Shown: positions 15,656 through 23,928 of the stretch, piece after piece
Position numbering within the stretch: the stretch's first letter is position 1
Layout of the letters: every line of letters begins with the position of its first letter
Source of the DNA: a virus
DNA length: 63,439 nt
Direction: 5' to 3' (one strand)
Virus record (IMG/VR): IMGVR_UViG_3300045988_126429
Span: 1 to 63,439 of that record
Notes under the pieces: generated by a model
Told to the model about the DNA's origin: nothing
The model's database searches: none
What the model saw: the letters and a program-made list of their open reading frames with translations, nothing else
Position numbers and translations under genes: made by a program

Positions 15656-17685
15656 GCTGTCACCTCGTTTAATGCGATAAGATATTCTTCCTCATTCGGG
15701 ACGGGCAAATGGTAGTCGCTGTTGCCAACAAACGTGATTTTATCGCCAGCCTTGCAGTCGACGGCATCAAAGCGGTTGTCCACCTCTGTTACTGTGACGA
15801 TTGGCGTCGCAAGCTCATAGTAAATTGTGATATCATCGTCAACTAAATGCTTTTGAAAAGCTTCGGCTGACTGAATGCTGTCATTGCGCCAACAAAGATT
15901 ATATGCGCTAGCACCATCGTTGATACACATCATGTCTACATCTACGTGTCTGCCTAATTCCATCGCGCTTGTATATCTGTTAATTTGTATAGTTTGAATA
16001 GGCTTGGAGCGTTCCTTAAGTTTGTCGCAAATCATAACAAAACAGGGGATATCATGTGATTGCACACGTTCCACTTGACAGCTAGCTAATTCGATAGACG
16101 GCACCACCCCTACCCTCTGCGTATGGCGTTGGTAATATTTGCCGTTCTGCTCGTAAAACTCTAAGCTGTCATATACACTGCCTGCTGATTTTAGGGAGAT
16201 TTTGTTGGGCAGTGAGATAACCTTATCACCCACCTGTACATCTGTAACATCAGCTGACACGAGTGTGCCTGCATTGTAAGGGTAATCGGGACGCGTGAGC
16301 ATTGCTTGAAATTGCTCTAACGTAGGCTCGTTACCTGCGCCAAACATTTGGGTAAGGTCGATACATTGAATGTTTTTGCATGAAATTGTAGCGCCGATGA
16401 CTGTAGTAGCGCCTGCAGCACGCACTCCTACAACAGATTTTATTGATTTAGCGGCAATATTCATCGCAGCATAGCCGCTCCATTCCGTGCCGTGTAACAC
16501 AACACTGTTTTCCGTCCCAAAAGCATCTTGGTAAACATAAGGACACAGTATGGTGTTGTTCTCACGGTCACTTTTTGCTTCAGCGTACATATAATATTTA
16601 TGATTTTTTATAAATTTCACGAATTGAGCCACGCCCTGCCATTTCTCCGTCACAGTAAACATAGCAACATTATTATTGACAATTATTGGTTGTGTGCCAT
16701 ACACGCGCCAAACGCTATTTGCATCTATATCTGTTTCAAATTTTACATCTTGTATACTCTGATTACTCGCCACGCTCCGGCCGCCAATCAATTTGACGTC
16801 CATAACCTTAGCCCCGCTAGGCACATCCTTGCTGTACGCTGTCTCGCTGTCAGTCTCATAGCGGTGGGTAATGCCTTTGCCCAAGTCGTAAAGCACGGAT
16901 ATACGGCGGTTAGCGTGTTTTAGCTCAGCTTTAAGGTGCTCGTTGTCAGCCTGCAATGTATCAGCAGTATCTCTGATGCCGTCAGCCGCTCCCTGCGCCC
17001 TGTCAGCCTGTGCCGTTGCCTGTGTGATAATCTCTGCTCCCTGCGCATCAATATCGGCTTTTGCCTTAGTGATAACCTCAGCCATGGCCTGTGATGCATT
17101 GTCGAGCATTGTCTGCGTGTCAGTCTTGATTTGCCCTGCCTGCTCCATGTATGTTTGAGCATTGCCCGCCGCCTCGACCGCCTGACCTGTCAACTCAGTA
17201 ACAGATTTTTTATCAGACGCCACCTGTTCAGCGTCACGATTAACTTGCTCCGCTTGCTCTGTGACCTGCTGTGCTGACAACTCTGCATTATCAGCAGATG
17301 CCCCGGCATCGGTAGAGTGTTTTTCTGCGCTCTTGTTGCTCTTCTCTGCGTTTGCAGCAGACTGAGCGGACTCGTAAGCACTGCTCTGAGCATTTATTTC
17401 GCTGGTCTTCGCGTTACCTTCGCTAAGCTTAGCATTGCCTTCAGACAGCGCGGCTTTCTTTTCAGATTCGGCAGCCTGCTTCGCAGATTCAGCAGCAGCT
17501 TTTGCACTTGCAGCAGCGTTAACCGTCAGCGCAGTTGTCGCGCCCTTGCTTGCCTCTGCATCATCAGCATAACCTCTTGCAGCATCTTCAGTTGGCTTCA
17601 CTCTGAGCCGCCGCCTCTTTACTAGTCTCAGCAGCCTTTTCGCTCGCCTTAGCGTTCTTTTCAGACTGTAATGCTGCCGCCGCAC
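15652..17685 (-). CDS. tail fibre, distal part (coiled-coil repeats plus C-terminal receptor-binding-like domain); true start unclear
   Basis: A/S/E/K-rich repeats AAESAKQAAESEKKAALSEGNAKLSEGNAK; C-terminus has LTQMFGAGNEPT; the first ~30 codons (MRRQHYSLKRTLRR...) look non-coding. Confidence 0.75.
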   Translation of the reverse strand: MRRQHYSLKRTLRRAKRLLRLVKRRRLRVKPTEDAARGYADDAEASKGATTALTVNAAASAKAAAESAKQAAESEKKAALSEGNAKLSEGNAKTSEINAQSSAYESAQSAANAEKSNKSAEKHSTDAGASADNAELSAQQVTEQAEQVNRDAEQVASDKKSVTELTGQAVEAAGNAQTYMEQAGQIKTDTQTMLDNASQAMAEVITKAKADIDAQGAEIITQATAQADRAQGAADGIRDTADTLQADNEHLKAELKHANRRISVLYDLGKGITHRYETDSETAYSKDVPSGAKVMDVKLIGGRSVASNQSIQDVKFETDIDANSVWRVYGTQPIIVNNNVAMFTVTEKWQGVAQFVKFIKNHKYYMYAEAKSDRENNTILCPYVYQDAFGTENSVVLHGTEWSGYAAMNIAAKSIKSVVGVRAAGATTVIGATISCKNIQCIDLTQMFGAGNEPTLEQFQAMLTRPDYPYNAGTLVSADVTDVQVGDKVISLPNKISLKSAGSVYDSLEFYEQNGKYYQRHTQRVGVVPSIELASCQVERVQSHDIPCFVMICDKLKERSKPIQTIQINRYTSAMELGRHVDVDMMCINDGASAYNLCWRNDSIQSAEAFQKHLVDDDITIYYELATPIVTVTEVDNRFDAVDCKAGDKITFVGNSDYHLPVPNEEEYLIALNEVTA

Positions 17686-18130
17686 TGTCTGCTGCTTCCT
17701 TCGCGCTCTGAGCGGCGTTGGTTGCGCTTGTAGCGGTCTTTAAACTCTCATCGCGTACCTTGCCAAGAACTTCTTCTAGATAAGTCGGCGTTAATCGTTC
17801 TTCGTCAGGATTATCAAAAGCTCGACCGGAGATAAGTAACAATTTGTCTTCTGCTGTTGCCGTTATATTCTTACCGTTGTTTCGTCCAACAACAGACATA
17901 ATAACTTCGCCTTGATCAGAAATGCATTGGGCAGGAATGATACATTTGTTATCTTGGATATACATTTCATAGGTATTTTGCCCATCCTTAAATAATGCCC
18001 ATTTTTCAAGTTCGGTCCAGTCAGAAGACTGAAAATCAAATAAACATTCAATAAAATTATTAGTTCCACACACAATTTTATTGCTGCTTAAAGTAAGGCG
18101 TTGTGTTTTTATAATAATTTTAATTTGCAT
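17588..18130 (-). CDS. tail fibre, proximal part (Ig-like N-domain plus the start of the same A/S/E/K repeats)
   Basis: 180 aa; ends ...SAKEAADSAAAALQSEKNAKASEKAAETSKEAAAQSEAN*, and the repeats continue in the next ORF in another frame. Confidence 0.7.
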   Translation of the reverse strand: MQIKIIIKTQRLTLSSNKIVCGTNNFIECLFDFQSSDWTELEKWALFKDGQNTYEMYIQDNKCIIPAQCISDQGEVIMSVVGRNNGKNITATAEDKLLLISGRAFDNPDEERLTPTYLEEVLGKVRDESLKTATSATNAAQSAKEAADSAAAALQSEKNAKASEKAAETSKEAAAQSEAN

Positions 18131-18142
18131 TGTTTTAACCTC

Positions 18143-18721
18143 TTACAATTCTATGTTGTCGAGTTCAAAAACAGTTTTGCAAGCTTCTACTTCAGCCTGT
18201 TTTTTCCATCCTTCTTGCTTGCAACCTCCTATATGCATTGACAAATCAGCCATCCATTTCATGACCTGCGACGGATTAAGCCAAAATACAGATTTGCTGT
18301 TCTGCCCGTCAGCAACTCCGCGCACCGGGCAACCTGCAGGATATTTTTCCGCAAATTGTTCCGTGTTTACATTAAGAGCAATCCCTTGCATAGTAAGCTG
18401 AGTATCTACATCACTGTCATAGGTGACTTTTTTTCCACTTGCTTCACTAACAAAACCTCCAGTAATTTTACTTGCAGTCCACTCATCAATCTCTTTCAGT
18501 TTAAGTTTCTTTTGAAATGCTAAAATAAGTTCCTCATCATCTTTTGGGAAAACAACATCACCATTTTCATCAAGAGAAAAATCGGTGGGAGTAGCAGAAG
18601 AACTAATATTTTTAATAACATACTCGTCAACACCATTATCCATGCCTACAATATAGTTTTTCAAAGAATCTTCGGAAGCACTAATAGCAATACCTTTTTT
18701 GTTTTTAAACAAATAAAACAT
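18143..18721 (-). CDS. hypothetical tail-fibre-module protein
   Basis: 192-aa ORF, AAGAGGTGA RBS; position between fibre genes. Confidence 0.5.
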   Translation of the reverse strand: MFYLFKNKKGIAISASEDSLKNYIVGMDNGVDEYVIKNISSSATPTDFSLDENGDVVFPKDDEELILAFQKKLKLKEIDEWTASKITGGFVSEASGKKVTYDSDVDTQLTMQGIALNVNTEQFAEKYPAGCPVRGVADGQNSKSVFWLNPSQVMKWMADLSMHIGGCKQEGWKKQAEVEACKTVFELDNIEL

Positions 18722-18734
18722 TTATTTCACCTCT

Positions 18735-19319
18735 TTAATACTTAACGCCATAAATTTCAATAATAGAGCAGTTTTGAGTTTCAGTGTACCAAATAGTATC
18801 TGTCGAAAGAGGATGAGTAGTTGTTCCAGATTGTACTCCCGAATACAGTAACCAATAAATAGAGTCAGTGTTCAAAAGATTAAAATAAGACCCCTCAGAA
18901 AATGCTTTTTGTAATTCCCAAACATCCCACAAAGTGTATTTTGAACTATTACCTCTATCATCATTGCCAACCACCAAAATCTTATCATACAGTGTGTAAG
19001 ATTCTTTAAGCATTATTGTGCTTGGCATGTTGTCACTTCCACCAGATGTTGTCGGGAAAGAAGCATCACCACCATAAGCTTTGATTCCTGTACCTGTATT
19101 AATAATATTTCTTACATCTGTACCGCCATTTCTTGTTTTCATTGTGTCCCAATCAATCAACGCTACAAGGGTAGGTGTAGTGTTTCCTGCTAATTTGTCG
19201 AGCAAATCAGTCTTAACAAAAGCAAAATCATCACTCCCTACACTAGAGATATTTTTATTGAAACTGTTATAACTAGGAAATACATGAATTTTATCTAACT
19301 TACCTGTTGTACTTGCCAT
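18735..19319 (-). CDS. hypothetical tail-fibre-module protein
   Basis: 194-aa ORF, AAGGAGGT RBS. Confidence 0.5.
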   Translation of the reverse strand: MASTTGKLDKIHVFPSYNSFNKNISSVGSDDFAFVKTDLLDKLAGNTTPTLVALIDWDTMKTRNGGTDVRNIINTGTGIKAYGGDASFPTTSGGSDNMPSTIMLKESYTLYDKILVVGNDDRGNSSKYTLWDVWELQKAFSEGSYFNLLNTDSIYWLLYSGVQSGTTTHPLSTDTIWYTETQNCSIIEIYGVKY

Positions 19320-19331
19320 TTTTTTACCTCC

Positions 19332-19535
19332 TTATAAATCACTCACCGTTGCAGTCAACTCATTAATATCAGTGCCCCAACTAAATGTAACCCCATCAAC
19401 AGAATCAGAAATATTAAGGGTCAGATTATACGTTTTCCCCGATGTAACAGCAACTATACTGTGCATGTCTTGATGGTCGGAGTTACCTTCATCCTCAAAA
19501 CGGGAGTCACTATACCCACTGCCCCATATTTTTTT
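19332..19535 (-). other. -1-frame C-terminal extension of the glycine-rich fibre gene, entered at an A7 run
   Basis: A AAA AAA at 19535-19529 in the 0 frame; the -1 frame stays open for 65 codons (IWGSGYSDSRFEDEGNS...TFSWGTDINELTATVSDL*) and ends 12 nt before the next ATG. Confidence 0.5.
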
Positions 19536-21094
19536 GTACTGTTGTTTATAACAGAAATTGCATAGCTATCCTCCTCTTCAAGTGGCGCATCCGCTGTTAA
19601 GCAATCTGCATCAACTTTAATTTTTGTAATACCAATTGGAACAGTAAAGGATGTAGAGGTTTCAGAAGAACTAAAGTGCTTTTCTCCTGTTATTACAGAT
19701 ATAAATTTCACTTCTAGCACTTCTATTGCCCCGTATTGCACGTTATATACCGCAGTATGTAAAACTCCACTACTATCAATATATTCAAATGTAAGCTTCT
19801 CTTTACTACCCCATGTTTTAAAGGACAGAGAGAATACCCCTAATTGATTAGTATGGTGTGTTTCTCCATTAACTGTAACTGTGCTTCCCATAATAGCATT
19901 ATCATCTAAATAGCATCTACACGTCAATTCAGCTTTTTTATTTACTGTAGGTATATATGGTGTTGTTCCATCGTATTCAATAATAACAAAACCTTGTGTT
20001 CCGTCGCTTACTCTATATCTAAATGCACGGTCATTGTCATTACTATAAAAGGTATTTTTACCACCTGCGCCTACAACAATCTGAATAGTGCTGTTAGGAG
20101 TTACTTCAACCTCTGCATCTACAATAAATGCACCACTATTTCCTGCGACACCAATTTGATTAGAAGTTCCGTCAGTGTCATAAAAATGATAAGAGCCACC
20201 ACCTGCACCATAGATGTTAAACGATTCAAAAGTTCCTGTAGGTGCATATGTTACGCTATCTTTAGTTCCAAGCACATCAGCATAGTAATACCCAACCTTT
20301 CCCATTACGTCTGCTAAAGTAGCAATACCATTCTTGTTAAGTAAAAAACCATATCCATGTACAGTAAAGTCTCTATTTCTAGCGGTAACATATTCCCCTC
20401 TTACACCATTTTTAGAAGCAACAGGCTGATTAACAGTCATTACATTACCACTTCTTAAAGTAGCAGTTGCACCTTGTCCTCCGGGGATAACATAACTGCC
20501 AACTTTCGTATCTCCGCCGTTTCCTGCTTGCATATCCAACGTGGGGCAGGAATTATAAGCACCAACAGTAATACCGCCTGCTCCACCACCACAACCAGTA
20601 ACATATAATTTTGTAATTCTAGCAGGGATTCTCAAACTGTAAGTACCTACATTTTTATAGACAAGCCTTGTACGCTTTAACGTAACTACATCTTTATACA
20701 GTAGATACTTTGAGCCGTCTTTTTTTTGCATCTCAAAAACAGTTTTCGGAATGCTACTCATTTTTTGGGAATACTTATCTTTATCAACCTTATAAGATAA
20801 AATGCAAAATCCGTCTACACCGTTACCGCCTGTACTGCCTTTCGTAGAACTCGACTTACCAACAGGAGAACCACTATCAGCATAGTTGGATGTATTGCTC
20901 GCATTATAAATTCCACCTCTAGCAGTTACACCTAATGCAGAAGAATCCTCTCCTGTTGTACCATAAACATAGTTAGAATTATTGGCTGTTACACCCTTGC
21001 CACCTTTTCCACCAGCACCAATAGTAATAGTGTACTGTGTTCCAGGTATAACACTAATAACTCTTGTTACACGTTCTCCATAACCTATAGTCAT
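19454..21094 (-). CDS. glycine-rich-domain tail fibre protein (C-terminal portion of a split gene)
   Basis: Start MTIGYGE after AAAGAGGTGA; begins mid-domain (RVTRVISVIPGTQYTITIGAGGKGG...GGNGVDGFCILSY), then an intact copy VGTYSLRIPARITKLYVTGCGGGAGG...GFVIIEYDG. Confidence 0.75.
   Translation of the reverse strand: MTIGYGERVTRVISVIPGTQYTITIGAGGKGGKGVTANNSNYVYGTTGEDSSALGVTARGGIYNASNTSNYADSGSPVGKSSSTKGSTGGNGVDGFCILSYKVDKDKYSQKMSSIPKTVFEMQKKDGSKYLLYKDVVTLKRTRLVYKNVGTYSLRIPARITKLYVTGCGGGAGGITVGAYNSCPTLDMQAGNGGDTKVGSYVIPGGQGATATLRSGNVMTVNQPVASKNGVRGEYVTARNRDFTVHGYGFLLNKNGIATLADVMGKVGYYYADVLGTKDSVTYAPTGTFESFNIYGAGGGSYHFYDTDGTSNQIGVAGNSGAFIVDAEVEVTPNSTIQIVVGAGGKNTFYSNDNDRAFRYRVSDGTQGFVIIEYDGTTPYIPTVNKKAELTCRCYLDDNAIMGSTVTVNGETHHTNQLGVFSLSFKTWGSKEKLTFEYIDSSGVLHTAVYNVQYGAIEVLEVKFISVITGEKHFSSSETSTSFTVPIGITKIKVDADCLTADAPLEEEDSYAISVINNSTKKYGAVGIVTPVLRMKVTPTIKTCTV
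21074..21084. repeat. 11-bp direct repeat, downstream copy, flanking the radical-SAM cassette
   Basis: Minus strand GTTATGGAGAA, read in frame as (G)YGE in the 546-aa ORF; identical to 22193..22203. Confidence 0.9.
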
Positions 21095-21096
21095 TT

Positions 21097-22161
21097 CTAC
21101 ATCACCTCTTTTATTGCTCCCCAAAATTCTCGCAAGTAATCACAATAACATAATTCACCATCTTTCTGCACTGCAATGGGACAAATGCAACGGCAAATAT
21201 CCAAATGCTCGCAAGTTTTGCATTTAACAGGCAGAAGTTCCTCAAAAATTTTTCTATGTTTTTCTTGCAACTCTATAAAGTTATCTGTAATATAACCCAC
21301 AATTCTATCAGTATTGTGACACAGCATAACTTCTCCATTAAAATTTACACTAAGACTTACAATAGCAGGACGGCAAGGGGGATATGGATATTCATAAAAT
21401 TCTTCTTTATCAAAATTCCTTACACGCAAAATTTTTGAGAAAAACCAATGTCTTGCATAAGGTGCAATTTTACTATCAGAATTAGCAAATAACCACAAAT
21501 TCTTAACCGCTTTTTTTATTACACTAGGCTCAAATTGGTATAGGTCAAGTGGTGTATGCTCACTCAACACATTAATAAACCCACAAGTAATTTCTGTTTC
21601 GGGGAAAGTGTAATGTAGCCAATCAAAAGCTTCTACCATATTGTCATTAATAGCACTAAAAACAGTATTAACCGTTCTTTTTCTTATACGTAAAAACTTT
21701 TTGCAGGCTTCTTTACTAGGGACTGCATTTCTCGCCGCTCTTGCGTTTGGCGCATCATAACTCATAATAAACCAAATATTATTCTCATTACAGAAGTCAA
21801 CTATCTCATCATTTAAAAGCAATCCGTTACTAAAAATCCTATAGCTAACATTCTTTACACCGTTTTTCTTAAATTCAAGCACAAGCTTCTTAATGGTTTC
21901 CCAATAAAGTAAAGGTTCTCCACCCCAAAAATATAATCGGCGAGGATTATTTTCAGCGTACTTCCAAGGCAGGTTACTCCACATAACTATAAAGTCTTTA
22001 ACATCTTGTGATAACTCTTTTCCATGTGGAGAAAGATTAAAGCAACTTTTAATAGGTGTTTGAACACAATGCCTACATGACATATTACAAGCAGCCCCAA
22101 GTAAAAGATAAATAGCACCCAGGTCATTAAGGTCATGTATTTCTTCGCTAAAGTTTTTCAT
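21097..22161 (-). CDS. radical SAM enzyme with C-terminal SPASM-type Cys cluster
   Basis: CNMSCRHC (CxxxCxxC), GGEPLL, C-terminal CRP...NGEVMLCHN...CKTCEHLDICRCICP; start ATG 22161 (alternative 22200). Confidence 0.85.
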   Translation of the reverse strand: MKNFSEEIHDLNDLGAIYLLLGAACNMSCRHCVQTPIKSCFNLSPHGKELSQDVKDFIVMWSNLPWKYAENNPRRLYFWGGEPLLYWETIKKLVLEFKKNGVKNVSYRIFSNGLLLNDEIVDFCNENNIWFIMSYDAPNARAARNAVPSKEACKKFLRIRKRTVNTVFSAINDNMVEAFDWLHYTFPETEITCGFINVLSEHTPLDLYQFEPSVIKKAVKNLWLFANSDSKIAPYARHWFFSKILRVRNFDKEEFYEYPYPPCRPAIVSLSVNFNGEVMLCHNTDRIVGYITDNFIELQEKHRKIFEELLPVKCKTCEHLDICRCICPIAVQKDGELCYCDYLREFWGAIKEVM

Positions 22162-22168
22162 ACGCACT

Positions 22169-22360
22169 TTAGTTGCCTTCGCCGCCACTGCCTTCTCCAT
22201 AACTGCCGCCCCCACTTCCACTATTATTTCTGTTTTTGCCACGACCACCAGCTCCTGCTCCCGAAATTTCTACTGTAATTTCAGTAACACCTTCGGGAAC
22301 AGTAAATGTATAAGTTCCAGCATTGCTCCATGATGTAACTACATCTACTTTATCAGCCAT
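22169..22360 (-). CDS. 63-aa glycine-rich ORF: N-terminal fragment of the glycine-rich fibre domain and/or precursor-like peptide
   Basis: AAGAGGT RBS; AGTYTFTVPEGVTEITVEISGAGAGGRGKNRNNSGSGGGSYGEGSGGEGN*; parallels the start of the intact domain in 19454..21094. Confidence 0.65.
   Translation of the reverse strand: MADKVDVVTSWSNAGTYTFTVPEGVTEITVEISGAGAGGRGKNRNNSGSGGGSYGEGSGGEGN
22193..22203. repeat. 11-bp direct repeat, upstream copy, flanking the radical-SAM cassette
   Basis: Minus strand GTTATGGAGAA, read in frame as (S)YGE in the 63-aa ORF. Confidence 0.9.
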
Positions 22361-22370
22361 AATATACCTC

Positions 22371-22793
22371 TTATTCTGTATAGGTAATCATCGTTACGCC
22401 TATACTATCAATGCCAAGATTTTTTCTTGCAGCTTCAGGAGTTGTAGCTCCTGTGCCACCATTAGCAATAGGCAATGCACCGTCTGTATTGCCCAAACCT
22501 AAAACATTGCGAACGCCAGCAACAGTAGTTTGCCCGGTGCCACCACCAGCAATAGGAAGAACCTTAAATTTTGCGTCACCGCACAATGCCATGTCCTGCT
22601 TTCCTGCCGCTGGAATAGGAACAAGTCCCGCTTTGCCAGCGGCGTTAGATGTTGCCCCTTCCATATTAGCAATATTGACATTGCCTTTAGAATCGGGTTT
22701 TGCGCCATTAACCGAACGAACAAATTTTGCTTTTATTTGTCCTAAAAAATAGCTTAATCCGTCAAGGTCAATTAATTTTTGCAAGTTAGCCAT
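22371..22793 (-). CDS. tail fibre protein (GGTG repeat type)
   Basis: 140 aa; IAGGGTGQTTVAGVRNVLGLG and IANGGTGATTPEAARKNLGI motifs typical of phage fibre N-terminal regions. Confidence 0.65.
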   Translation of the reverse strand: MANLQKLIDLDGLSYFLGQIKAKFVRSVNGAKPDSKGNVNIANMEGATSNAAGKAGLVPIPAAGKQDMALCGDAKFKVLPIAGGGTGQTTVAGVRNVLGLGNTDGALPIANGGTGATTPEAARKNLGIDSIGVTMITYTE

Positions 22794-23242
22794 TATGCCA
22801 GCTCCTTTGTAATCAAATTCTGAATTTCAGATTCAGTTGCCGTCTTCAGCTTGTAAGCCCTGGGAATAACTTCCCAGGTTACTGAGCCGTCGGTATAAGT
22901 TGCTCCGAGCACAGCTTCACGAAAATCTGGTTCACTTACAGCCGTATCGCCGCCAACAGTACATGCTAAGACAAGACTTTTAGGCAAGTTAGGTGACAAT
23001 ACGATGTCACCATTAACATAAGATGTATTGTTCTTGCGAATGTTTAAGCTGTTAAAAAGGTACTGACTTTTTAAATCACTCACATTCTGTAATTTGTTAA
23101 AGTATTCAAGCGGCGGCGCTTCTCCTTTGTCAAGATAGCCCCAACCACGCAGGTAATCAAGCTCAGGCCAAGAATCAATCATCTCACCAATGCTTGCGCT
23201 ACTACCAAAAATCAAATCAAAAGTAGGCTGTTTCATTACCAT
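22793..23242 (-). CDS. baseplate/tail-fibre-proximal protein
   Basis: 149-aa ORF directly after the gpI-like gene. Confidence 0.45.
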   Translation of the reverse strand: MVMKQPTFDLIFGSSASIGEMIDSWPELDYLRGWGYLDKGEAPPLEYFNKLQNVSDLKSQYLFNSLNIRKNNTSYVNGDIVLSPNLPKSLVLACTVGGDTAVSEPDFREAVLGATYTDGSVTWEVIPRAYKLKTATESEIQNLITKELA

Positions 23243-23928
23243 TATTCAACAAGTCCCCCTTTCACCTTTATAATCCTTGCGAATGTTCCTTGATTAAATC
23301 CTTTAAATCTATAGGGATTTTCTCCGCTTCTACTAAAACCGAACGTATTCGCAGCATCGAACGAATATACATAAATAACGCCGATACCTGCGCCACGGAT
23401 AATAAGGTTCAGTGCATCAATCAAACGGCTTTCCTTGCTGGTTACTACGCGCCCTATTCCTATGCGCATTTTAGCATTTCCTGCATTAACAGCGGAAACG
23501 CGTTCGACATTAAAAACATTCTTTATACTATGTATTGTGCTAACGCGAGAGCAGTCAGTCGTGTTTTTCTCAATTTTAGAGATAACAGCAAGACGGTAGT
23601 GCTGGTCGTTCAAGTCGCTGGATGCAAGATAATTATCATACATACGTCTAAACGGAGCTTGTCCGAATCCCATGTTGCCATGATCGGGAAAGCCAAAAAA
23701 ATCCATTGCAATAGCGTTTTCAACACGGCGAGAAATATCAGCGACTTCACCGCACATATCAAGCTGCTTACCAACTGCCGTATCTGGCCATATCTGTGTC
23801 CTTATCTGCTCCCTTACTTTATCTATGCTGTCGAGTTCGTTTCCGACGGCATTAAGAAAAGCTTTAATGTTGGGTTTGTTACGAAACTGACTTAACAAAT
23901 GGTTATACATTCTTTCGCTTGTAGTCAT
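23242..23928 (-). CDS. baseplate wedge protein (gpI-like)
   Basis: 228 aa; LLSQFRNKPNIKAFLNAVGNELDSI...AVGKQLDMCGEVADISR pattern; follows the baseplate J gene. Confidence 0.6.
   Translation of the reverse strand: MTTSERMYNHLLSQFRNKPNIKAFLNAVGNELDSIDKVREQIRTQIWPDTAVGKQLDMCGEVADISRRVENAIAMDFFGFPDHGNMGFGQAPFRRMYDNYLASSDLNDQHYRLAVISKIEKNTTDCSRVSTIHSIKNVFNVERVSAVNAGNAKMRIGIGRVVTSKESRLIDALNLIIRGAGIGVIYVYSFDAANTFGFSRSGENPYRFKGFNQGTFARIIKVKGGLVE

Follow-up and report, generated by a model that had tools for sequence, protein, structure and literature searches.

Radical S-adenosylmethionine (rSAM) enzymes with a SPASM domain make C-S, C-C and C-O crosslinks. Among them, QhpD modifies a protein subunit and not a released peptide, and the anaerobic sulfatase-maturating enzymes (anSME), which are ~360-370 amino acids (aa) long, work without a recognition element (RRE) for peptides made on the ribosome and modified after translation (RiPPs) and accept Ser or Cys. 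Phage genes in pieces are likewise known, T4 gp39/gp60 being one example, and nrdA of phage Aeh1 is said to be split by the homing endonuclease gene mobE and to stay functional. Here we examine a window of 63,439 nucleotides (positions 1 to 63,439 of the IMG/VR virus record IMGVR_UViG_3300045988_126429) in which an rSAM/SPASM gene stands, as profile matches indicate, between the two halves of one glycine-rich tail-fibre domain. An earlier reading of the letters alone (the sequence-only reading) had seen in it a cassette inserted into a fibre gene and bracketed by an 11-bp target-duplication-like repeat, and knew of no described arrangement of such kind; in agreement with the latter, a full-text literature search found no description of a phage virion/rSAM split-domain arrangement. 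Comparison with relatives identifies the locus as a conserved three-gene module and not as a recent insertion.

The three genes run head to tail on the minus strand and are probably co-transcribed. A small open reading frame (ORF) of 63 aa (22360..22169; MADKVDVVTSWSNAGTYTFTVPEGVTEITVEISGAGAGGRGKNRNNSGSGGGSYGEGSGGEGN, with the C-terminal end GGGSYGEGSGGEGN before the stop codon) has a clear Shine-Dalgarno (SD) sequence of its own (TAAGAGG, 22373-22367). The rSAM/SPASM gene of 354 aa (22161..21097, with the ATG at 22161 and a TAG stop at 21099-21097) starts 7 nt after the small ORF stop and has a weaker SD (GAAGG ~14 nt upstream), and after another 2 nt comes the fibre ORF, 546 aa as encoded here (21094..19454, ATG at 21094), which begins MTIGYGERVTRV / MTIGYGERVTRVISV and whose SD (AAGAGGTGAT, 21101..21110, minus strand) lies within the last rSAM codons and is conserved in relatives.

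In Pfam, the small ORF (22169..22360) matches positions 3-41 of Gly_rich_2 (PF21722) with 22.5 bits, below the gathering score of 24.3, and would hold strands 1-3 of the domain plus a C-terminal tail. The first 101 aa of the fibre protein (20792..21094, minus strand) match positions 43-129 with 39.1 bits and, as alignment to intact domains also suggests, form the C-terminal piece. In-silico deletion of 1,119 bp gave one Gly_rich_2 stretch (3-129) of 60.8 bits, above the gathering score and reported as above the sum of the separate pieces, vs. 43.7 bits for plain concatenation. The sequence-only reading had placed the split at this very point and had expected one continuous ORF upon removal of the 1,119 bp, and both expectations agree with the contiguous profile positions of the two ORFs; the second, uninterrupted Gly-rich domain that it had noticed later in the fibre protein is present as well (aa 149-376, window 20650-19967, minus strand). 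Judged from these matches, one tail-fibre domain is divided between two polypeptides. Uninterrupted homologues do align across the junction: P0003, near which no rSAM was found, with 43% identity over 114 columns, and the intact nozzle domain of L259, which reads ...GGNGERIIKTVTL where the window fusion reads ...SYGERVTRVISV; a gene fused at the window junction itself was found in none of the relatives checked there. A PDB sequence search with P0003 returned nothing useful for a solved Gly_rich_2 relative. The fused domain was modelled with AlphaFold2 (AF2) without an alignment (predicted local distance difference test, pLDDT, 57), and we took from the model only the order of the strands and a tentative class of fold; its nearest Foldseek matches were 7ypx and the glycine-rich domains (GRDs) of ALK/LTK. 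The resemblance, to the ALK GRD and the Pam3 fibre, is weak, and at this pLDDT the fold assignment is tentative. As a side observation, in the phage that carries P0003 the gene for DNA polymerase III alpha is broken into several pieces (L022:17426-20777), one of which carries an intein (PF14890).

The tail of the small ORF, G-E-G-S-G-G-E-G-N (22172..22198, minus strand), is the probable substrate or recognition motif of the rSAM enzyme. A database search returned 32 clusters of the small-ORF family (59-69 aa), all of which end in a variable number of GEGSGG-like units followed by ...SGGE(G)(N/A/D), and codon comparisons mark the small ORF as a real, selected gene, with 176 synonymous vs. 30 nonsynonymous codon changes in pairwise counts over a 36-codon core in relatives. 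The pattern (GEGSGG)n-EG[N/A]-stop, with units repeated two or three times, is kept across rSAM relatives of 45-100% identity and is shared by myo-, sipho- and podovirus-like phages; its codons vary synonymously (GGC/GGT/GGA, AGC/AGT), which indicates conservation at the protein level. Within the window the motif occurs in one of 707 ORFs. The 73 same-family loci have 9,426 ORFs, 11 of them with the motif; these belong to exactly the 11 loci with the window rSAM type, and in each case it is the ORF directly upstream of the rSAM that ends in it, whereas the other 62 loci, which lack this rSAM type, are free of it. In the whole rSAM clade of ≥44% identity, at every locus whose upstream ORF could be read, the tail ORF either lies immediately upstream of the rSAM gene, at a distance of -21 to +8 nt, or is separated from it by one gene.

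The arrangement around this pair changes between phages. In 11 IMG/VR relatives (rSAM 89-100% identical, fibres 85-99%), the three genes are separate and equally spaced, and the layout of small ORF, rSAM and C-half also holds at 72% rSAM identity (L114). In the T7/epsilon15-like podophages L023 (67%) and L025 (56%), a 227-234-aa protein ends ...GTYTFTVPTGITRISVEIAGAGEGG...GEGSGGEGA, followed by the rSAM and by a 692-699-aa nozzle protein that starts with the rest of the Gly-rich domain. Among siphovirus-like tail genes (L027, L042 and L043, 49-52%), a 268-aa protein ends in ...GEGSGGEGA, its stop overlaps the ATG of a putative C-half (GCATGA), and the rSAM comes after both pieces, which means that the split also occurs without an intervening gene. 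At 45-47% identity (L030, L031, L044, L115), fibres of 440-600 aa end in ...SGSGGEGSGGEGGA, ...GEGSGGEGSGGE or similar, with the rSAM directly after them; the gene next to the rSAM encodes a holin in L031, L044, L046 and L047, so there is no C-half. L027 has, besides the pair described above, another rSAM of 335 aa that is unrelated to the first and comes after a fibre protein of 573 aa ending ...GSYDDYGGDS (L027:5225-7957), giving two fibre/rSAM pairs side by side.

More distant rSAM clades follow other tails. A 38% clade (L049-L054, e.g., L049:3381-5450) belongs to the same phage family and occupies the same genomic site (window ~22360-19454) with a 206-aa protein ending ...DYTFTVVTDTTVTTSQPYDDSSCGSEGGCGGGEA (also given as ...SSCGSEGGCGGGEA), the rSAM and a 137-aa protein; the replacement of Ser by Cys in its tail points to a related reaction of the thioether type. 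A 35% relative follows the tail ...NLTFTVWGDTTITATNPWDDSCSVDSSGCGGEGG, the 35-38% clade as a whole has tails of the form ...SSCGSEGGCGGGEA or ...CSVDSSGCGGEGG, and the 24-30% clades follow fibre-like proteins ending NCNCNC... or CDCKCDC...DEE. The shared unit is a strand motif x-Y/L-T-F-T-V ... T-I/V-T, then a tail with Ser/Cys and an acidic residue 3-4 positions later. Tail type and rSAM clade co-vary, from Ser-type to Cys-type to Cys-rich, the pattern expected of enzyme and substrate. Separately, the fibre-like proteins of many other IMG/VR phages (L056-L070, e.g., L058:2148-3986, L062:2222-4004) have Cys-rich tails (...SYNCNCNCSDTDE, ...SNCDCKCDCKCDCTGGNDEE) with at least one distantly related rSAM/SPASM gene directly after, and the pairing of fibre tail and rSAM may be a broad phage theme. 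On the bacterial side, a metagenome contig (L029:7515-17178) has a tandem array of six rSAM/SPASM paralogues with 33-37% identity to the window enzyme. The remnant of a seventh copy, in two parts, belongs to the same cluster, as do genes for a Cys-rich peptide of 53 aa (...GCPEQVPGCCCGCGSQ) and an ATP-grasp protein; this is probably a RiPP cluster akin to the ancestors of the phage enzymes. Host clues come from a Phascolarctobacterium metagenome-assembled genome (MAG) with a 93% rSAM copy and the isolate Succiniclasticum ruminis DSM 9236 with a 46% copy, and gut Negativicutes such as these two genera are the likely hosts, an assignment that is tentative because two other close copies were binned with Bacteroides and Segatella MAGs.

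The podophage nozzle offers all states of the domain at one site. The phiV10 nozzle/tail protein (823 aa) aligns by residues 6-168 to residues 11-162 of a 234-aa ORF in L023, and by residues 169-822 to the 692-aa ORF of L023 from its residue 106, which places the L023 module (Gly-rich N-half with tail, rSAM, Gly-rich C-half) at nozzle position 168/169, where it cuts an essential nozzle protein in two. None of 69 IMG/VR nozzle relatives (48-98% identical, most of them 82-89%) has an rSAM. The four closer ones that were read through (L256, L259, L263, L311) are single ORFs of 918-934 aa, and in the two that were scanned (L256, L259) this nozzle site is occupied by an uninterrupted Gly_rich_2 domain (profile 2-175); the 48% relative L322 (754 aa) and phiV10 have no Gly_rich_2 domain. 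Intact, split and domain-free states thus all occur at one podophage site. Fusing the L023 halves in silico raised Gly_rich_2 from undetected to 41.8 bits, and the L025 and L027 fusions scored 26.4 and 21.2 bits, the latter below the cut-off. The L023 nozzle flanks are ~88% identical to those of these relatives, in which its Gly-rich C-half has no detectable match and its N-half is by eye about half identical; N-half and rSAM resemble those of the window instead, so the L023 module appears to have been swapped in as a whole.

A comparable exchange is visible in the family of the window phage. Homology to same-family phages (baseplate ≥89% identical) stops at ~22366-22596, mostly at 22366, before the start of the small ORF, and resumes at ~18421-18508, which delimits a variable distal-fibre cassette (18422..22365, minus strand) of the small ORF, the rSAM gene, the fibre ORF, ORFs of 44 and 194 aa and part of one of 192 aa. 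Of the 73 same-family loci, 11 have the window module and 5 the 38% Cys-tail module, and in ~30 with enough flank the site holds different distal-fibre genes, with no rSAM among them; some of these genomes have intact Gly-rich domains (28-32% identical) at other positions, where no rSAM of the window type lies next to them. In this phage family the distal tail-fibre region is hypervariable, with flanks ~91-93% identical and unrelated inserts of ~1.3-2.5 kb vs. 3.9 kb here. The sequence-only reading was right that a domain is split around the rSAM. The rSAM alone is not the mobile unit; what recurs in other phages includes both domain halves.

As for the repeat, the 11-mer GTTATGGAGAA has, as had been noted, exactly two copies in the window, both on the minus strand (22193..22203 and 21074..21084), 1,119 nt or 373 codons apart and read in the same frame as Y-G-E. 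Shuffled sequences gave an expectation of 0.05 copies, and two matches were reached in 0 of 100 shuffles; the 1.5-kb region, however, contains 12 families of short direct repeats (10-22 nt), among them another exact 10-mer, so an exact 11-mer pair somewhere in it is not rare, and only the in-register placement at both junctions is notable. The left copy reads S-Y-G-E and has 7-10 of the 11 bases in relatives; the right copy reads G-Y-G-E within a native G-x-G-E-R-V before domain strand 4, and its best match is 10/11 in the nearest IMG/VR relative and 7-8/11 in the other ten. The left junction reads SHGE, SAGE or SVGE in the 11 IMG/VR relatives, and the four relatives with His at that position (one IMG/VR contig sampled twice, L001 and L253, and the metagenome contigs L254 and L255) have GTCATGGAGAA, a 10/11 match with one C-to-T change; CAT (His) stands in all three additional copies of the left junction that public data yielded, L253 being the L001 contig. 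The exact 11/11 repeat is restricted to the window sequence, and the 11-mer as a conserved target-site duplication was rejected, since the exact repeat is missing from all relatives. The residues encoded after the left copy (GSGGEGN before the stop) are no stray read-through into a cassette and turned out to be the most conserved feature of the system. We regard the exact repeat as a lineage-specific near-coincidence over native G-x-G-E at both junctions, and, given G-x-G-E at both junctions in the window lineage, an old small duplication at the fission point is possible. In either case the 11-mer is no evidence of recent transposition.

Other kinds of interruption were considered for the locus. 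No terminal inverted repeats were found at the cassette ends, and Pfam detected no transposase, integrase or recombinase, the rSAM being the only ORF between the halves; together with the unconserved repeat, these results do not describe a transposable element with a target-site duplication. The Rfam scan of 18500-23500 gave no match at E≤1 and hence no group I/II intron. An intein was dismissed because the middle ORF is in a different frame, has its own start and stop and matches only rSAM and Fer4_12 in Pfam, and the homing-endonuclease type of genes in pieces because the intervening ORF is an rSAM/SPASM enzyme. TAG/TGA recoding was rejected, as the small ORF ends in TAA and a TGA follows the rSAM TAG in frame. 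No fused or excised variant was present in the 73 same-family loci, and the fused-junction pattern had 0 matches in viral and metagenome collections vs. 3 for the unfused one, a weak negative in view of the few copies sampled.

The enzyme itself falls, by profile and model matches, in the peptide/protein-maturase branch. Radical SAM superfamily membership is supported by PF04055 (32.3 bits vs. a cut-off of 29.5) and by CX3CX2C at C25, C29 and C32, invariant in 31 homologues, and SPASM subfamily membership by TIGR04085 (28.5 bits vs. 27) and by the 7-Cys motif for two auxiliary clusters, CX9-15GX4C...CX2CX5CX3C...C from C263 to C340, whose residues C263, G276, C281, C314, C317, C323, C327 and C340 are likewise invariant in the 31 homologues. 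NCBIfam gave sub-threshold matches only, all to peptide/protein maturases (including lachnocin, CcpM, QhpD, SCIFF and anSME); the PapB profile (NF047865) was matched over nearly its full length with 49.4 bits vs. a cut-off of 340, and anSME (TIGR03942) with 38.3 bits vs. 349. The AF2 model (pLDDT 90.5) had its best Foldseek matches in anSMEcpe (top; 4k38, E 6e-12), TigE, ChlB, CteB and SkfB. PDB sequence alignments to TigE (8vpo) and CteB (5wgg) start at about residue 100 of those chains, hence the phage enzyme lacks the N-terminal part of both, where CteB has its RiPP-recognition domain. The family comprises 64 clusters (50% identity) at E≤1e-30 and 451 at E≤1e-10, IMG/VR has 478 rSAM loci, and candidates of 660-800 aa in the representative search, considered as fibre-rSAM fusions, turned out to be tandem double-rSAM proteins. 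In the GenBank phage collection neither blastn of the locus nor tblastn of the rSAM gave a match. A PapB-type system was set aside on its equivalog score and on the missing Cys donors, the 63-aa protein having no Cys and a Glu at S-G-G-E, with Cys tails only in the 35-38% clades; anSME on its score, the missing C/S-x-P/A-x-R motif in the tail and the generic nature of the fold resemblance; and a canonical RiPP cluster because the enzyme has no region matching the N-terminal part of CteB and TigE and no protease or exporter is encoded nearby, the neighbours being baseplate and fibre genes.

On balance, we consider it probable, with ample room for doubt, that the locus is a conserved and mobile split-domain module in which the rSAM modifies a virion protein at its tail and the two halves reassemble non-covalently. 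The recurring unit consists of the Gly-rich N-half with its tail, the rSAM and the Gly-rich C-half, and is found in fibres and nozzles of unrelated phages in place of intact domains. The 63-aa protein would supply the first three strands and a free flexible tail, (G-E-G-S-G-G)n-E-G-N, and the fibre protein would begin with the remainder of the domain; the rSAM encoded between them, lacking an N-terminal extension, may modify the tail of the first half, after which both halves could come together as one Gly-rich domain on the virion. Presenting a free, flexible C-terminus to the enzyme may be the purpose of the split. Two reactions are candidates by analogy. One, as in PapB/QhpD, is a crosslink that joins the side chain of Ser/Cys to that of the Glu three or four positions downstream; it is favoured by the obligatory Glu 3-4 positions after Ser/Cys and by the tandem units, and oxidation of Ser/Cys to formylglycine, anSME-like, by the interchange of Ser and Cys between clades and by the fold match. 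A Ser-type crosslink would be an ether link, unprecedented for this enzyme branch. PapB is reported to act on C-terminal segments and to require a carboxylate (PMC12373016). Several points weigh against this interpretation. Modification of the tail is inferred from its adjacency to the rSAM, its exclusive association with it and the co-variation of the two; the lack of Cys in the window-clade tail precludes thioether formation, the best-understood chemistry of these enzymes; alternatively, the tail might have a structural role as a polyglycine-II segment, or its codons GGNGGNGARGG could be a ribosome-binding or translational-coupling signal, and the L042 tail reads GGAGGTGAAGGAGCATGA at the nucleotide level, which is SD-like. 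Reassembly of the halves is likewise a prediction. The AF2 model of the fused domain is of low confidence (pLDDT 57), and the absence of a C-half after the rSAM in L031, L044 and L115 makes split and tail separable.

Some of these points recur if the rSAM is taken as a passenger (a moron, metabolic or anti-defence gene) whose function has nothing to do with the fibre halves, with the tail as a structural element or coupling signal and the halves reassembling all the same, which we regard as unlikely. Intact Gly_rich_2 domains do function without any rSAM, the tail codons resemble an SD, and genes split by an inserted ORF reportedly stay functional (Aeh1 nrdA/mobE); against this, the tail precedes the rSAM directly also on fibres without a recognisable Gly_rich_2 C-half (L030, L031, L044, L115), its type changes with the rSAM clade, its two or three repeats exceed the need of an SD, and the enzyme sits in a peptide/protein-maturase branch. 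A recently inserted mobile rSAM cassette, with an 11-bp target duplicated and a 1,119-bp excision restoring the gene, is very improbable. It would explain the exact in-frame 11-mer at both junctions and the fusion by precise deletion, which has the best Pfam score and resembles the GGNGERI of intact domains. It does not fit with a three-gene layout kept down to 45% rSAM identity while the left copy retains only 7-10 of 11 bases in relatives, with a conserved tail encoded directly after that copy, with the lack of inverted repeats and recombinase, with 0 fused vs. 3 unfused junction matches, or with the swapping of the whole 3.9-kb cassette, and not of the rSAM alone, among same-family phages.

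We give next to no credence to the idea that the interruption is overcome in the RNA or in translation, through an intron or intein or through ribosomal bypassing or recoding, to yield a single fibre protein. In its favour, the halves share one frame at a distance of 373 codons; against it, each has its own conserved stop, SD and ATG, the halves of L027 and L042 keep stop and restart even though they abut, Rfam is negative at E≤1 over 18500-23500, and Pfam finds only rSAM domains and no Hint domain in the middle ORF. That the rSAM crosslinks the N-half tail to the C-half, a radical-based protein ligation healing the split virion protein, appears quite doubtful to us. The C-half N-termini (MTIGYGERV, MAGELKK, MGNNGGRGG, MSTGRIQ) share no conserved acceptor, some loci have tail and rSAM without a C-half, and we know of no precedent for intermolecular crosslinking by this enzyme class, points that stand against the splitting of an essential nozzle protein by the module, the occurrence of the rSAM with the split tail-bearing form and never beside any intact Gly_rich_2 domain examined, and the crosslinking chemistry of SPASM enzymes in general. 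A broader form of the tail-modification reading, quite improbable in our view, would have the split made deliberately to expose the tail, with the modified tail locking the halves together (perhaps covalently) or forming a reactive or crosslinked adhesion element; if true, it would be a new class of virion maturation, possibly involving radical-based protein ligation.

Two further observations concern neighbouring sequence. The fibre gene shifts frame at a poly-A tract (A7 at 19529-19535, minus strand), which here gives the 546-aa ORF (19454..21094) and a separate 44-aa ORF (19332..19466) in the -1 frame; a 99% relative (L012) has A8 and a single 587-aa fibre ORF ending ...TATVSDL, and in another relative (L016), whose tract is A9, the frame changes once more. 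The heptamer A_AAA_AAA also has the form of a classic slippery site for -1 shifts, and the change might stem from programmed slippage, from phase variation or from an error in the assembly. Furthermore, GC content rises to 0.52-0.55 at window 17000-17750 vs. about 0.35-0.43 nearby, over the 3' part of a 677-aa tail gene and the low-complexity C-terminus of the next ORF, which is rich in Ala, Ser, Glu and Lys (...AAQSAKEAADSAAAALQSEKNAKASEKAAETSKEAAAQSEAN).

If the tail is modified, phage receptor-binding and nozzle proteins would join the short list of SPASM protein substrates, and virion assembly would include an enzyme and substrate paired as in RiPP systems. The absence of the domain, its intact form and its split form with rSAM at one site are a natural three-state series, which makes the question directly testable. 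The module also shows that the coding sequence of an essential structural protein can be divided into pieces about a gene for an enzyme, in a unit that occurs in myo-, sipho- and podovirus-like gut phages, and the Ser-for-Cys tail hints at a chemistry undescribed for this enzyme branch.

Compared with the PapB/ranthipeptide and QhpD maturases, the phage enzyme has the same CX3CX2C and full SPASM Cys sets, and with PapB it further shares a profile match over nearly the whole length, a substrate gene adjoining the enzyme gene and a repeated motif with an acidic residue 3-4 positions after Ser/Cys; it differs in its score (49 vs. 340), in the Ser of the window tail where their substrates have Cys, in a substrate that would be part of a virion protein and in the lack of a protease or exporter encoded nearby. 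It resembles anSME in its top Foldseek match (4k38, E 6e-12), in size, in the lack of an RRE and in its presumed action on proteins, and the acceptance of Ser or Cys by anSME parallels the Ser-type and Cys-type tails of different clades, whereas the NCBIfam score (38 vs. 349), the absence of the C/S-x-P/A-x-R motif and the lack of a nearby sulfatase set it apart. Classical RiPP clusters (SCIFF/CteB, TigE) also consist of a short ORF with a repetitive core followed by an rSAM/SPASM gene, and bacterial relatives (33-37%) sit with a Cys-rich 53-aa precursor (L029); the phage enzyme, in contrast, has no N-terminal extension, its "leader" would be a structural half-domain, and its podophage substrate would be a 230-aa nozzle piece. 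As in the genes in pieces of Aeh1 (nrdA/mobE) and T4 (gp39/gp60), an independent gene interrupts a coding sequence, the halves gain stop and start, and function is presumably kept by non-covalent reassembly, but here the intervening gene encodes a maturase and not a nuclease, the upstream half has an added tail, and the moving unit includes both halves. The known examples of Gly_rich_2 fibre domains, the ALK/LTK GRD and the cyanophage Pam3 fibre are single-chain, while the window domain spans two genes. The chemistry or the role behind the module (e.g., covalent re-joining) has a small chance of being categorically new. Maturases beside their substrates, protein substrates (QhpD, anSME) and genes in pieces are each familiar; their combination is not, with a virion protein as the apparent substrate, a Ser core, a domain split around the enzyme and a distribution over three morphotypes.

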